A DNA stretch of 32,000 nucleotides from Xylanibacter ruminicola 23 (GTDB taxonomy: Bacteria; Bacteroidota; Bacteroidia; Bacteroidales; Bacteroidaceae): assembly GCF_000025925.1 (NCBI RefSeq), contig NC_014033.1, positions 1,320,001 to 1,352,000 of the forward strand, given 5' to 3'. Every line of letters begins with the position of its first letter. Position 1 is the first letter of the stretch. Shown here in pieces: positions 24,961 to 28,695 of the stretch. The notes under the pieces are model-generated. The model was not told the origin of the DNA. It made no database searches and worked only from the letters and a program-made list of their open reading frames with translations. A program made the translations under genes and the position numbers.

Positions 24961-27900
24961 ATGAATAGAAACTTGAACGTAAAACTAAACCAAAAATGGT
25001 TCGGAAACCGAATACTGCCAAGAGATGCATATCGACTTGACGGTGTTTACGATTTTAAGGTGCGTAAACTATTCACCACCTGTTGTGAAGTTATCGACGA
25101 ATCTACCGATATCACGGCGTATTTGCGCGGCACGGCTAATCTGAAACTGTTTAAAGGGCAGATAGTAAAGTGTCGCATTTTGTCGGTTAAAGAGAAACAT
25201 CCGCATATCGAACTGGCTGATTACCGAGGATTCCAACGTACAGAAAGAAGTTTAACAGATGAGAAGTTAACCGAGCTGCTTGATGTCAGGGAATTGTCGT
25301 GGAATAAGAAAGATTTTATCAGGCTGTTATTAACTGAAGAGAGGGAAAAATCGTTCGAGAGCCAATGTCATAAATGGATTCAGGGACTGATAAATAAGAA
25401 AATCGACCTGCAAACGGTTAAGATGGATTGCTCCGACTTGCTAGAGTTATCAGAACTACTCGATCTTTGTGCCGATAGCGAACGAGAATTTTACCAAGAC
25501 CGACTCACGCTCATAATAGAGCAGTTAACCTACTACATCCAGTCGGATGAATTAATTGCCAACGAGAATGATACCGATTCAACCGAAACACCTACTAACT
25601 TTATCAACAGTTTGTTTAATAAGCTTAAGGTTTCTGGTTTTGTATATCATCCCATCAAGCATTTTAATATCCTGTCGAGTATTTTCCTGCGTCGACCCGA
25701 CCTGATGAATGGCCGTATTAAGGAACTGCTGGATATCATCTGTCAGCGACATATCGAGAACTGGCGAAAAGAGCCGTTCTGTAGCGCTATCATTAAACTG
25801 CTGGAACTATATGTTCGCGAGTGCGATGGAAGGATTGATAAAACCAAGGATAACCTCGAACTTATAAAGAACAACATTCAGGCGTTGGCTTTGCAGCTGT
25901 TGTTGCTGCAGGATAGTCCAGATACGTCGATTGCTGATTTCCGTCTGAATACAGCACGACTCTGTGCAGTGTCGTCGTATCTCTACCCGCTGCATCCCGA
26001 CTGGCTTATAGATATGGCTTACTACTATCTGTTCCACTCAGATGCTAAGTTGGTAAACTATACCATGGATAAGGCTCCCCTATTGCCACACTACATCGCC
26101 AGTCTTTACCCTTGCGAGCCGATAGATACCACCAACTCGTTTACGCAGAACAAGATAAAACTGCAGATTTCAACCGATGGCATCATGCTGTTCTCGCCTA
26201 ATTCGATACAGAATCCCTGTGCGGTTTTTCCCCAAACACTCGAGTTGTGGCAGGGCATGCAGGTTATTCTTGGCGCCAAGCCAAGTGTAAATTTGGCCAC
26301 AGCCAAACCTAACGATCTTACCCCATACCAGCAAGTATGGCAAGAGATTGAGAACGAGATGTTTAATGTGGGACAAGTAATAACCACTACAGGAGTTAAG
26401 CGACGCAAGCAGCATAAGATAGGCGAACTGGTACGCATCAGTTTTATCAGTCAGGATAACTACAGCAACAATAAATACTATTGTCATATCGAAGACGAGA
26501 TAGGTGGCGAAGGTTTTATCTATATGAGCGACATTGTGGCTTATACGATTTCAAGTTCTTTGCGACTTTTCCTTGCTCCCGATGGTGGCAGATATGTGTT
26601 TATGGCTTCAATCATCGATGAGTACAATGGCTATTTCCACTTCTCGATGTTACAGGAGATAAAGGATAATGTGCTCGACTATTACACCTACGACGAAGAT
26701 ATTATCTGCTCGCTGGGTGGTAGTCCTAACGCTTCAGGTATTGCGCCTGCTGTTTCAAGGGATGGTATCAGCGTAAGCCTGCGCAACGCCATTGGCTTTG
26801 AGGGGTTGGAAAAAAACTCGATTGTTAGTTGCAGACTGATAGGCCGTAGCACTGGTACGTTCCACATACAATGCGAAATGAACCAGATTACCACATACGA
26901 TTTCGACATTGTAAGTGCCTTTAAGAATCTGATGGAAGATTATGCCGTGGGATGTGTGTATGATGAGAATATCGGTAAGCAGGAAGAAGAAGCAATCCTG
27001 GAGAGTGACCGGGTGCTCGACGAGAGCTATGTACGCGAACTTATCTTTCTGATAGATCGTATGGCGCAGATAGATAAGGACTATATAAAGATGTATAATT
27101 ATCTGGCCTTTGCCCGAACACTATCTATGATGATTGGATGGGAGTCGCAGGCTGCATATTACAAAGGCAGAATGGACATCATCACCATGCTTCACTATTT
27201 TGCCCGTAATTCTAAGGTAGATGAGGATAAGCTAGAACAGCTGGAGAATGTAAACTCTGAGCTGTTTGCCAACAACGAGATTTTGCGCGACCGTTTTGTG
27301 CAGCTGCAAGCTGTAAGTTTCATGAATAAACCAGAGCATAATGCCGATCTTTTCGAACTCACCAAAGGCAGCCCGTCAATCAGCGAATTGGCATCGTTGG
27401 TATTGGCCTATAATATCACCAAGGGCAGCCAGATGGAAAGCACGGCTACCGATATTCATAACCGCATTAAGCAGCAATTAAATCTTAATGGCTTTGAAAC
27501 AGGCCTTAAGCTGTATGGTTCAGGACAGGAAACCACCGATACCGAATACAAAACCAGTCTGGTTTTCCCCGCCGGCAGCAAAAAGGTGAAGGAAAATCCC
27601 GAGAAACAGATGGAGGAGATTCTGAAGGTTATCAACTCGTTTATGAATACCGCCGGAGGTACGCTCTATGTGGGTGTTAACGACTATGGCCTGGGCACTG
27701 GTGTAGAAGACGACTTGAATTCGACCGTTTATCATGGCGACCGCGATAAATACCAGCGCGCCATCCCCGATGCCATGTGTGCCAAATGGGGTAACAGCCT
27801 GGCAGCCACTTATATCGAGGATATCAGTTTTGACGCTGCTAATACCGATAAGGATATACTGGTGGTAAAAATCCGTCCCCACCAAGCAGGTGTGCCTTTT

Positions 27901-28695
27901 GATGGCTATTGGTATGTGCGTGTGGGCAGTACCAAACGTAAACTTTCGAGAGAGGAGTTTGATGAGTATCAGCGACTTAACCGAAAACTACCCGAAGAGA
28001 TTGAGACCGAAGTTTCTGCTAACCACCATGTGCAGTTCAGCGAGCCCGAGAAACCCGCTGTTAACGGTCCGCTGGTGATTTCAAAGGATGATGAAGTTCG
28101 TACCAGTCGTATTCGAAAGAATGTGCCTGCCGAATATCTCGATCCATTAAACTATACCGAACCCATCGGCTTCTTTAAGTTCCTGAGCGGCGGCAAATTC
28201 CGCAAATTGGAAGAGTACGACTACGACGACCAGTCGCTGTTAACGCTTGCTGTTTTGGATAACGAATCGAAAAGCTATCTGGTTTTGGGATACGCCAATG
28301 GCCATATCGTGAAAGTACCAGTAGAGGAATTGTTAGATTATCAGCAACGCGATTATAGTCGTTATGCAGAGTCGAAACTCGTATTTGCCACTATTGCCGA
28401 TGAAGATGACGCCATCATGACTATCAGCAAGGAGGATAAAACCCGCCCCAAGGTAGTTATGCGTCTCGACCACCTGTCGAGTTTCGACGAAGGAAAACTG
28501 ATGGATCCTGGTCAGCTACCTTACAACGAGGGTTTAATGAGCGAGATTATGGGTTATGAGGTTATTCCTGCCCAGTATGTACCCGATTTTGAGGGCATAT
28601 TGGATAAGAAGAAAACCTTTATCGGTTATCCCGCGAACAATGTTACCAGACCAATGGTAAACACCCTGCATCTCTGGGGTATAAATGAAATCTGA
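24961..28695 (+). CDS. Large (1244 aa) multi-domain protein: S1/OB-like repeats + AlbA_2 (Schlafen-like) nucleic-acid-binding domain + uncharacterised C-terminal domain
   Basis: ATG at 24961. Promoter TTTG 24876-24879 and TACATTTG 24900-24907. Residues about 25-90 (YDFKVRKLFTTCCEVIDESTDITAYLRG...GQIVKCRILSVKEKHPHIEL) look S1/OB-like, as do residues about 490-560 and about 600-650. Residues about 855-990 (EYKTSLVFPAGS...ILKVINSFMNTAGGTLYVGVNDYGLGTGVEDD...ILVVKIRPH...VRVGSTKRKLS) match the AlbA_2/Schlafen-box pattern. No Walker A motif seen. Confidence 0.75.
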   Translation: MNRNLNVKLNQKWFGNRILPRDAYRLDGVYDFKVRKLFTTCCEVIDESTDITAYLRGTANLKLFKGQIVKCRILSVKEKHPHIELADYRGFQRTERSLTDEKLTELLDVRELSWNKKDFIRLLLTEEREKSFESQCHKWIQGLINKKIDLQTVKMDCSDLLELSELLDLCADSEREFYQDRLTLIIEQLTYYIQSDELIANENDTDSTETPTNFINSLFNKLKVSGFVYHPIKHFNILSSIFLRRPDLMNGRIKELLDIICQRHIENWRKEPFCSAIIKLLELYVRECDGRIDKTKDNLELIKNNIQALALQLLLLQDSPDTSIADFRLNTARLCAVSSYLYPLHPDWLIDMAYYYLFHSDAKLVNYTMDKAPLLPHYIASLYPCEPIDTTNSFTQNKIKLQISTDGIMLFSPNSIQNPCAVFPQTLELWQGMQVILGAKPSVNLATAKPNDLTPYQQVWQEIENEMFNVGQVITTTGVKRRKQHKIGELVRISFISQDNYSNNKYYCHIEDEIGGEGFIYMSDIVAYTISSSLRLFLAPDGGRYVFMASIIDEYNGYFHFSMLQEIKDNVLDYYTYDEDIICSLGGSPNASGIAPAVSRDGISVSLRNAIGFEGLEKNSIVSCRLIGRSTGTFHIQCEMNQITTYDFDIVSAFKNLMEDYAVGCVYDENIGKQEEEAILESDRVLDESYVRELIFLIDRMAQIDKDYIKMYNYLAFARTLSMMIGWESQAAYYKGRMDIITMLHYFARNSKVDEDKLEQLENVNSELFANNEILRDRFVQLQAVSFMNKPEHNADLFELTKGSPSISELASLVLAYNITKGSQMESTATDIHNRIKQQLNLNGFETGLKLYGSGQETTDTEYKTSLVFPAGSKKVKENPEKQMEEILKVINSFMNTAGGTLYVGVNDYGLGTGVEDDLNSTVYHGDRDKYQRAIPDAMCAKWGNSLAATYIEDISFDAANTDKDILVVKIRPHQAGVPFDGYWYVRVGSTKRKLSREEFDEYQRLNRKLPEEIETEVSANHHVQFSEPEKPAVNGPLVISKDDEVRTSRIRKNVPAEYLDPLNYTEPIGFFKFLSGGKFRKLEEYDYDDQSLLTLAVLDNESKSYLVLGYANGHIVKVPVEELLDYQQRDYSRYAESKLVFATIADEDDAIMTISKEDKTRPKVVMRLDHLSSFDEGKLMDPGQLPYNEGLMSEIMGYEVIPAQYVPDFEGILDKKKTFIGYPANNVTRPMVNTLHLWGINEI

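Follow-up and report, generated by a model that had tools for sequence, protein, structure and literature searches.

A probable ATPase-free prokaryotic Schlafen with OB-like and helical partner domains, encoded at the end of a Xylanibacter ruminicola island

What might a protein of 1244 residues do that joins a Schlafen/AlbA_2 domain to several OB-like folds, and to which family does it belong? The gene in question lies at 24961-28695 on the forward strand of a 32,000-nt stretch of Xylanibacter ruminicola 23 (contig NC_014033.1, positions 1,320,001 to 1,352,000, assembly GCF_000025925.1), referred to here as the window. An earlier note, made from the sequence alone, had described it as an S1-rich protein with an AlbA_2 domain but with neither an ATPase nor a recognisable catalytic motif, located immediately downstream of a dedicated structured small RNA (sRNA) and next to a restriction-modification (RM) system, and had regarded the architecture as one that could not be placed. 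The open reading frame (ORF), the domain order, the AlbA_2 assignment and the lack of an ATPase hold on closer analysis, while the absence of a catalytic motif and the dedicated status of the sRNA do not. The architecture now fits the prokaryotic Schlafens (pSlfn), in which an AlbA_2 effector would be combined with a large, lineage-specific sensor region. Based on the AlbA_2 domain, its catalytic motif, the fusion to non-catalytic domains and an accessory location, linked to defence genes in about half of the neighbourhoods examined, we consider it very probable that the protein is a stand-alone, ATPase-free member of the pSlfn family. A phage-triggered mechanism of defence by tRNA cleavage, which is drawn by analogy, is only slightly favoured.

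Schlafen-type nuclease domain and domain architecture

The gene is an ATG-initiated ORF free of interruptions and is thus intact. By exact-sequence look-up, it was located on contig BPTT01000001.1 (3.58 Mb) of assembly GCA_019973335.1. The coding sequence and the features of its nuclease-type domain are:

24961..28695, + strand: probable pSlfn-type coding sequence, complete, 1244 aa (ORF list and translation)
27529..27945, + strand: Schlafen/AlbA_2 nuclease domain, aa 857-995 (Pfam PF04326, E 7.9e-10)
27529..27552, + strand: Ex4ExK motif ETTDTEYK, with E857, E862 and K864 (regular-expression match)
27682..27684, + strand: D908, equivalent of the third carboxylate (phmmer alignment of GVND with SLFN5 GVHD)
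27712..27714, + strand: D918, a near-invariant acidic residue (D in 129 of 130 representatives)

The sole curated family matched by the protein is Pfam SLFN_AlbA_2, at 39.7 bits against a cut-off of 25.3, and the match covers profile positions 1-117 of 118, that is, a full-length domain of more than 100 aa. Regular expressions for Walker A and the DEAD box found nothing in the protein, and no NTPase family was matched in the Pfam, NCBIfam and PADLOC scans. Pfam did not detect HATPase_c_4 on the C-terminal side of AlbA_2, where a linker and then a beta domain are found instead. The NCBIfam scan as a whole gave nothing significant, and PHROGs yielded only an AlbA_2-containing 'DNA helicase' family. 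A PDB search with the full-length profile returned 0 matches, and one with the C-terminal profile returned coiled-coil noise and a weak match to SLFN5 only. The AlbA_2 segment alone reached SLFN5/12 in the PDB at E 0.5-1.4, which was used just for residue alignment. Regular-expression matches to PD-(D/E)xK, HNH and HEPN motifs were set aside because the profile libraries report no such domain and because, after the midpoint of the alignment of distant members, invariant residues are confined to AlbA_2.

In Schlafen nucleases, the active site is formed by an Ex4(E/D)xK motif located where the AlbA_2 domain begins (PMC13056530, PMC13462974). Contrary to the earlier impression that no catalytic motif could be recognised, the motif is present as ETTDTEYK on the first strand of the modelled AlbA_2 domain. 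It was found in 119 of the 120 close homologues, the last of which failed the anchoring motif and was left unassessed. Across more divergent sequences, E857, E862 and K864 are invariant in all 130 cluster representatives (at most 50% mutual identity; AlbA_2 regions aligned to the family hidden Markov model), and they are among only 13 invariant columns in an alignment of 36 sequences at 19-31% identity. The same residues matter in characterised systems. The E15A/D20A substitution in RorSlfn5 leads to loss of both tRNA cleavage and defence (PMC13056530), and mutation of the motif in CbCash likewise abolishes both, E17, D22 and K24 of this protein positioning Mg2+ at the scissile phosphate (PMC13462974). 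Nuclease-dead Schlafens, for example mouse Slfn2, have lost motif residues (PMC8789055, PMC13462974).

The acidic triad of the Schlafen nucleases can also be traced in the protein, as E857, E862 and D908. phmmer pairs its GVND segment with GVHD of SLFN5, at chain positions 230-233 of 6rr9_A, and this places D908 on SLFN5 D233, which equals rSlfn13 D248, the third carboxylate of the classical triad (rSlfn13 E205/E210/D248). The assignment follows from that alignment and from a chain index equal to the residue number: the 6rr9_A construct covers M1-D336 in pET21a (NdeI/XhoI) and, with a presumed C-terminal His-tag, comes to 344 residues. The mention of R211 in PMC8789055 agrees with this numbering. 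Among the 130 representatives, the D908 position is D in 93, N in 30, K in 6 and R in 1; the position varies, so that not all members of the family have the classical three-carboxylate triad. The window protein itself has the complete residue set of E857, E862, K864, D908 and D918.

Outside the nuclease domain, about 850 N-terminal and 240 C-terminal residues are folded, according to the models, as OB, helical and beta domains, a fusion of the kind seen in pSlfn. The modelled parts are:

25033..25230, + strand: OB1, S1-like OB fold, aa 25-90 (AlphaFold2 strands at aa 29-87; basic, isoelectric point (pI) 8.9)
25258..26103, + strand: helical domain A, aa 100-381 (AlphaFold2 secondary structure; predicted local distance difference test (pLDDT) mostly 75-90)
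26134..26271, + strand: small beta module, aa 392-437 (AlphaFold2 strands; pLDDT 56-69)
26428..26889, + strand: tandem OB2 (aa 490-562) and OB3 (aa 580-643) (AlphaFold2; pLDDT 79-91)
27022..27480, + strand: helical domain B, aa 688-840 (AlphaFold2; mean pairwise identity 0.71)
27994..28146, + strand: disordered, poorly conserved linker, aa 1012-1062 (pLDDT below 50; mean pairwise identity 0.42)
28162..28590, + strand: C-terminal beta-rich domain, aa 1068-1210 (AlphaFold2; acidic, pI 4.7)

The protein was modelled with AlphaFold2 in two pieces, aa 1-670 (piece A) and aa 671-1244 (piece B), each from an alignment of 13 family members. Mean pLDDT and predicted template modelling score (pTM) were 76.8 and 0.49 for piece A, and 72.8 and 0.38 for piece B. 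The models reproduce the sequence of modules that had been read by eye, and add the small beta module at aa 392-437, for which family scans of the isolated segment were empty. For helical domain A, the Pfam scan was empty and PDB fold matches were absent from the Foldseek top 50. The AlbA_2 fold was modelled at aa 860-1006 of piece B, and its Foldseek matches are 3lmm (DIP2311), SLFN13/11/14/12/5 and the DNA-binding domain of SAMD9.

The S1/OB modules of the earlier note are recovered at the level of fold and not at that of sequence profiles. A five-stranded OB barrel of the S1 type is present in the models, which are of moderate confidence. S1 sequence profiles were insignificant, the best hints both being on OB1 (S1_RRP5 at E 0.13; NCBIfam S1_dom_Ygs at E 0.11), and the isolated modules gave no PF00575 match at E <= 10. 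In Foldseek, the best PDB folds for piece A are the tandem domains of ribosomal protein S1 (9gut_B, 1.8e-5; 7a05, 3.5e-4), followed by RNase R/II, eIF2alpha, exosome S1 subunits and DHX8 S1; the tandem-OB HIN domains of IFI16, p202, p204 and AIM2 are also matched. The top match of piece A in the viral library BFVD is a phage S1 protein (6.6e-6). Taken singly, OB1 matches S1, eIF2alpha and IF1 folds, and the OB2-OB3 region matches tandem S1 domains (9gut_B, 7a05) and HIN tandem-OB domains (3rlo, 5z7d). The latter region carries a strongly conserved KYYCxIEDEIGGxGFI motif (invariant alignment columns), and both of its modules are acidic (pI 4.8 for OB2 and 4.6 for OB3). Sequence similarity among OB1, OB2 and OB3 was undetectable, with hhalign probabilities below 3%. 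Internal repeats were also sought by hhalign among the OB modules, the small beta module, the C-terminal domain and the helical regions, and nothing related was found.

The C-terminal domain resembles part of the beta-pinwheel of the GyrA/ParC C-terminal domain (CTD) in Foldseek (1zi0, 1suu, 3l6v and 1wp5, E 4e-4 to 1.5e-3). The match comprises about 160 columns of about 290 residues, at a root-mean-square deviation of about 5 A and a template modelling score of about 0.35. No PF03989 blades were found by profile (Pfam empty), and a pI of 4.7 does not correspond to a basic DNA-wrapping surface. The S1/OB and pinwheel labels used here denote similarity of modelled folds, not of sequence profiles.

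Distribution of the family and its neighbourhoods

With a word-indexed protein search, we recovered more than 120 homologues that span the full length (about 1230 aa; 53-99% identity). Several of the 90%-identity clusters comprise 150-370 sequences each, originating from metagenomes of the gut and rumen. This shows that the gene is real and intact, and that it is common in such communities. Further, searching 1.84 billion cluster representatives with a profile built from the first 670 residues found 280 representatives of 50%-identity clusters at E <= 1e-3, including 180 at E <= 1e-30. PF04326, and no second Pfam family, occurs in all 36 distant members sampled, which indicates that the N-terminal region and the nuclease form one conserved unit. 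The named organisms among the homologues are always Bacteroidales (Bacteroides zoogleoformans, Muribaculaceae, unclassified Bacteroidales metagenome-assembled genomes, Segatella copri, S. hominis and Prevotella); among the 120 homologues listed, only two carry an organism name, B. zoogleoformans and a Bacteroidales metagenome-assembled genome. A scan of genome contigs with a single-sequence query gave one locus (L001), and the taxonomic spread is inferred from metagenome clusters. Homologues were absent from 50,697 phage records.

Two further length classes exist. Members of the long class (about 1280-1390 aa) have 65-90 additional N-terminal residues, and those of the short class (about 950-1110 aa) stop just past AlbA_2, without the pinwheel-like domain. 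Within the close family, mean pairwise identity is 0.61-0.71 for the domains and 0.42-0.50 for the linkers, and helical domain B is the best-conserved segment. In databases, the homologues are named 'ATP-binding protein' or 'RNA-binding domain-containing protein'. The former name is unsupported because neither HATPase_c_4 nor another ATP-binding domain was detected, and the naming of such homologues can be corrected accordingly.

In the window, dcuB and GH43/panE delimit an island, and the gene occupies one end of it. The other genes of the island encode DUF4248, VapE/BT4734 primase-like and MmeI-type IIG proteins, together with three minus-strand ORFs that lack annotation; none of these is a conserved partner of the 1244-aa gene. 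The RM neighbour of the earlier note is thus real, a complete MmeI-type gene at 19216-21987, but it is not conserved as a partner, the neighbourhoods of the homologues being variable. Exact-protein look-ups of the flanking GH43 and DcuB found the same strain only, and this comparison did not show an insertion of the island.

The diversity of these neighbourhoods is considerable even among close relatives. The orthologue in an uncultured Prevotella (L001, 89% identity) is found between DUF1349/flavin-reductase and MacB/FtsX genes, and a homologue at 88% identity (L091) adjoins YbjQ, VanY and SpoIIE genes. The B. zoogleoformans homologue (L002) lies between an ABC transporter and a TP_methylase gene. 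At L004, the homologue is within a region resembling an integrative and conjugative element (ICE), with DUF4134, Toprim and M23 peptidase genes, and is preceded at 13 bp by an AAA_11/AAA_12 helicase gene (8212-9987) in an apparent operon. Apparent operons are also seen at L006-L008, with an Endonuclease_NS gene (13693-14469) 2 bp downstream, and at L013-L016, with a 218-aa His_kinase (PF06580)-like ORF 12 bp upstream. These three kinds of operon-like partner are absent from the window.

Recognised defence genes were found in seven of 13 distinct neighbourhoods, a small sample taken without a genome-wide background control. The seven are the window (IIG RM), L006/7 (RM and AbiEii in the flanks), L008 (type III RM, GmrSD, HNH and a second AlbA_2 gene), L012 (CHAT/caspase, UmuDC, WYL and PDDEXK_4), L013-L016 (type I RM and Fic nearby), L017 (a second AlbA_2 gene and IS66 adjoining the homologue) and L020. 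The last, together with L019, represents distant paralogues with about 27% identity over 96% coverage, named 'ATP-binding protein', which are carried on Segatella plasmids of 93 kb (L019, NZ_CP137558.1) and 317 kb (L020, NZ_CP137560.1), 5-7 kb from a replication initiator gene; L020 also holds two DUF262 genes and a DUF559 gene. In a published survey, about 70% of pSlfn genes were near defence genes and 97% were fused to presumed sensor domains (PMC13056530). Seven of 13 is of the same order as the published 70%. Copies also occur on mobile replicons (the ICE-like element of L004 and the Segatella megaplasmids), and the neighbourhood of the 89% orthologue in L001 is wholly different. Homologues are mostly accessory and not core.

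The sRNA, orf158 and the remainder of the island

The features around the gene are:

24876..24907, + strand: putative Bacteroidetes-type promoter, -33 TTTG at 24876-24879 and -7 TACATTTG at 24900-24907 (read from the sequence)
24561..24759, + strand: sRNA copy upstream of the 1244-aa gene, -7 box TATCTTTG at 24591-24598, transcript about 24603-24748
22017..22195, + strand: second sRNA copy, directly past the MmeI stop
22162..22638, - strand: orf158, an unannotated ORF of 158 aa, convergent to the sRNA copy at 22017-22195 and overlapping the sRNA terminator with its 3' end
22884..23876, - strand: ORF of 330 aa, all family libraries empty
24183..24392, - strand: ORF of 69 aa, all family libraries empty
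19216..21987, + strand: MmeI-type type IIG RM enzyme, 923 aa, complete (five of five MmeI Pfam domains; PADLOC REase_MTase_IIG, 1209 bits)

The consensus of Bacteroides promoters is TTTG/TAnnTTTG. A promoter-like TTTG/TACATTTG pair lies 54 nt ahead of the ATG, in line with the earlier claim that the gene has its own promoter; a sigma-70 promoter scan is not applicable to this organism. The gene is monocistronic in the window, given the strong terminator upstream (24709-24740), the promoter-like pair of its own and the converging GH43 as the next gene. A near-perfect palindrome, TTCGGGATATTCCCAAA, is located in the 5' untranslated region at 24932-24948, 13 nt ahead of the start codon, and could be an operator or an RNA hairpin. 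Base composition is uninformative, with a GC fraction of 0.44-0.46 in the gene against 0.47-0.49 in the flanks.

The upstream RNA is structured, as had been noted: it folds at -54.5 kcal/mol (z = -3.9), and its strong terminator has a 14-bp stem. Rfam has no family for it or for anything else in the window. The claim that it is dedicated to the 1244-aa gene fails, since a second copy exists and orf158 is the usual partner. The two copies are identical in the promoter and the 5' core; an internal hairpin is present in one only, and the terminator stem shows compensatory changes. The 23-nt core of the sRNA was found in 85 metagenome stretches (L021-L105). Members of this sRNA family are about 140 nt long and carry a Bacteroidetes -7 box; across 41 aligned versions, a core of about 100 nt hardly varies, and the variable helices show compensatory substitutions. 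Homologues of orf158 (55-97% identity) are convergent to the sRNA in about 60 of the 85 stretches. Only one stretch (L091) also carries a homologue of the 1244-aa protein, on the opposite strand and about 3 kb away, and the sRNA is missing at the protein-homology loci of other genomes (L001-L008, L011-L020). The sRNA is a repeated RNA of Prevotella whose usual partner is orf158, separate from the 1244-aa gene. A role for it as antitoxin or regulator of that gene, as in type III toxin-antitoxin systems, was rejected because the pairing is not conserved across homologues. Pfam, NCBIfam, PHROG and PADLOC are all empty for orf158, and the sRNA with orf158 is a candidate RNA-protein module, possibly toxin-antitoxin-like. 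The copy before the 1244-aa gene is solo and is followed by 76 nt (24760-24835) that match the region at the 5' end of orf158 (22604-22679).

Several intergenic modules are repeated in the island (22604-22882, 24026-24105, 24505-24547 and 24760-24835). A 43-nt element, TCCCCCTTAAGCGCATCTTGTTCTTAGGGAATAATGAATAA, which contains an inverted repeat, is present in three copies; there are two copies each of an 80-nt element, which bears a terminator-like hairpin, and of a 76-nt element. These repeats suggest cassette-like duplication or recombination. The region of the 330-aa and 69-aa ORFs has a low GC fraction of 0.36-0.38, and the 69-aa ORF is found again with orf158 in L051 and L090. On the dcuB side, 12118-18154 contains amidase_2, HU-HIG, DUF4248 and VapE/BT4734 primase-like genes, a set typical of Bacteroidales that flanks dcuB and borders the island. 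A comparable HU-HIG/DUF4248 set lies upstream of the homologue in L006/L007.

Mode of action, alternatives and known systems

By analogy with characterised Schlafens, we infer nuclease activity, an RNA substrate, a trigger, oligomerisation and a defence role for the 1244-aa protein, which would act together as follows. The AlbA_2 domain (aa 857-995) would be the effector, a metal-dependent RNA endonuclease centred on E857/E862/K864, with D908 and D918 near. The N-terminal 850 residues or so, comprising the basic S1-like OB1, two helical domains, the small beta module and the acidic OB pair, would be the sensor or regulator, and the optional pinwheel-like domain would join this part from the C-terminal side. 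The protein would stay inactive until a phage-derived cue, either protein or nucleic acid, binds the sensor region. A shift in conformation or oligomeric state would then unite single AlbA_2 domains into an active RNA-binding site, and cleavage of tRNA or another structured RNA would stall translation and lower the phage yield. Characterised Schlafens form their RNA site from two lobes or from adjacent subunits (PMC13462974); because the window protein has one AlbA_2 per chain, its activation by oligomerisation is likely. The suggestion of the earlier note that the folds point to binding or cleavage of RNA, possibly tRNA, is consistent with published work on bacterial AlbA_2/Schlafen proteins (PMC13056530, PMC13462974).

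A number of observations weigh against this interpretation. The PADLOC 2023 models give no match to the protein, and the confidence of the structure models is just moderate, as the pTM values indicate. The D908 position is N in about half of the close homologues (D/N about 50:50), in addition to the 30 of 130 representatives. The acidic character of OB2, OB3 and the C-terminal domain (pI 4.6-4.8) renders doubtful the nucleic-acid binding that their folds imply. Within the close family, the domains evolve at similar rates and a hypervariable sensor is not seen. The homologues at L001, L002 and L019 have no recognisable defence neighbour. At L011, the gene of a distant short-form member (4359-7556; 1065 aa, C-terminal beta domain absent) has coaE/DUF5606 on one side and a radical-SAM gene on the other, in housekeeping surroundings (rpsP, nusB, yajC and dxs); of all the observations, this one agrees least with a role in defence alone.

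Some of these observations would be expected under the main rival explanation, in which the protein is a housekeeping or regulatory RNA-processing enzyme of Bacteroidales whose OB folds feed cellular RNA to AlbA_2, with no role in immunity, much as S1 and CSD domains serve RNase R, RNase II and RNase E. We regard this as unlikely. The L011 context, the lack of defence neighbours at L001 and L002 and the uniform conservation of all domains agree with it, as do the fold matches to ribosomal S1, RNase R/II and exosome S1 subunits, the naming of N-terminal fragments as 'ribonuclease R' by JGI, and a graded series of identities within Prevotella-like sequences. However, the distribution looks patchy (two named organisms among the 120 listed homologues), close orthologues occur in unrelated neighbourhoods, copies are found on ICE-like elements and plasmids, RM and Abi neighbours are frequent, and the Pfam scan detected no RNB, RNase E or PNPase catalytic domain. 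Of the points on which the earlier note was to stand or fall, S1 fails by profile and holds by fold, AlbA_2 holds, and the homologues are mostly accessory, with L011 among housekeeping genes.

A more specific form of the pSlfn reading, which we judge decidedly unlikely, is an ATP-independent, nucleic-acid-sensing Schlafen. Here, OB1 and the HIN-like OB pair would recognise phage single-stranded DNA or a structured RNA intermediate and license tRNA cutting by AlbA_2, with the pinwheel-like domain as an optional second sensor. If true, the protein would be a bacterial counterpart of SLFN11, which is linked to single-stranded DNA, and of DNA sensing by HIN domains, with no NTPase switch.

It is very unlikely that the protein is a non-catalytic scaffold, associated with DNA, the chromosome or plasmids, in which AlbA_2, the OB folds and the GyrA-CTD-like domain only bind nucleic acid. 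One homologue is named 'putative DNA-binding protein', AlbA_2 of SAMD9 was crystallised as a DNA-binding domain (7ksp), and SLFN5, which has no tRNase activity, binds DNA (PMC8789055); the GyrA/ParC CTD-like fold, the distant paralogues close to replication initiators on two Segatella megaplasmids and the frequent N at the D908 position fit as well. A purely binding role is unlikely because the E-E-K residues are invariant, and such invariance over deep divergence is hard to explain without catalysis. In addition, acidity (pI 4.6-4.8) sets the pinwheel-like and tandem OB domains apart from the DNA-wrapping GyrA CTDs, and the C-terminal domain is dispensable, being lost in the short class.

Equally improbable is that the gene is cargo of mobile elements, serving competition between elements, exclusion or addiction by the same chemistry, with the loss or entry of an element and not phage as the trigger: the ICE-like region at L004 with its DUF4134, Toprim and M23 peptidase genes, the megaplasmid copies, the copies next to IS66 or PDDEXK_2 transposase remnants and the VapE/BT4734 primase-like gene bounding the window island suit it, but there is no consistently adjoining integrase, relaxase or antitoxin-like partner, the genes directly beside it vary from locus to locus (Endonuclease_NS at L006-8, the His_kinase-like ORF at L013-16, the helicase at L004, none in the window), and the phage collection has no homologue.

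As a probable pSlfn, the 1244-aa protein can be compared with several groups of known systems. Like pSlfn (RorSlfn5, EcoSlfn7; PMC13056530) and Cash (PMC13462974), it has a single PF04326 domain with Ex4(E/D)xK and a large non-catalytic fusion as would-be sensor, and appears as a single-gene system; in about half of the neighbourhoods examined, it is encoded near RM or other defence genes. Unlike these, its effector is in the C-terminal third after about 850 residues, its partners are three S1/OB-like folds, two helical domains and a pinwheel-like beta domain, and its family is seen solely in Bacteroidales. The statement in the earlier note that AlbA_2 usually occurs with HATPase or HTH modules agrees with published partner frequencies (HisKinase 34%, HisKinase-HTH 19.2%, HTH 8.8%; PMC13056530). 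The window protein lacks these frequent pSlfn partners (HisKinase/HATPase, HTH, DUF5929, Ig-like, DUF262, TBP-like, Csx15, NACHT and Argonaute) and also any NTPase or CARF-like domain. The family may belong to the 'unannotated fusion' clusters, 558 in number, of PMC13056530.

Similarity to the mammalian Schlafens SLFN11/12/13/14 and SLFN5 comprises the AlbA_2 fold (Foldseek) and a site of E-E-K plus a D carboxylate; sequence similarity is undetectable beyond the GG-x-L-x-x-GV-x-D segment (E about 0.5). The binding of single-stranded DNA by SLFN11 (PMC13462974, introduction) parallels the occurrence of nucleic-acid-binding folds beside the nuclease in the window protein. However, the chain of mammalian Schlafens contains two AlbA_2-like lobes and a zinc finger, to which group III adds a helicase/ATPase, whereas the window protein has one AlbA_2 and no helicase. 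SAMD9/SAMD9L and Avs9 (PMC12680541) are likewise giant multidomain proteins that combine an AlbA_2 effector with helical repeats and OB modules, and characterised members have an antiviral role (PMC12680541). These are STAND NTPases with a central P-loop, often with SIR2 and SAM, and their AlbA_2 is N-terminal, whereas the window protein has neither Walker A nor an NTPase fold and carries AlbA_2 on the C-terminal side.

The best structural match of the AlbA_2 domain is DIP2311 (3lmm; AlbA_2-HATPase_c_4-wHTH; E 4e-4, 20% identity). Proteins of this type bear the same automatic database names as the homologues of the window protein, which in comparison lacks HATPase_c_4 and wHTH, is 2-3 times longer and has OB folds. 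Multi-S1 proteins, such as ribosomal protein S1, CvfB (3go5) and RNase R/II, share the fold of OB1 and the tandem layout of OB2-OB3; unlike them, the window protein has no significant S1 profile, no RNB or exonuclease domain, and acidic OB2 and OB3.

Bacterial Schlafens have recently been shown to be anti-phage tRNases, and the fused sensor is what distinguishes them. The family described here is abundant among Prevotella/Segatella of the gut and rumen and among other Bacteroidales, and would add an ATPase-free sensor type made of OB/S1-like and helical domains. It would also provide a candidate defence gene against phages of major gut commensals, for which few systems are characterised. If the OB folds sense nucleic acid, it would also offer a compact model for the coupling of nucleic-acid sensing to tRNA cleavage by Schlafens. 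The OB-rich architecture and its lineage were not found described in the literature searched. The kind of system is known (pSlfn, 2025-2026), and the ATPase-free set of OB/S1-like and helical partners is probably a new architecture within it.

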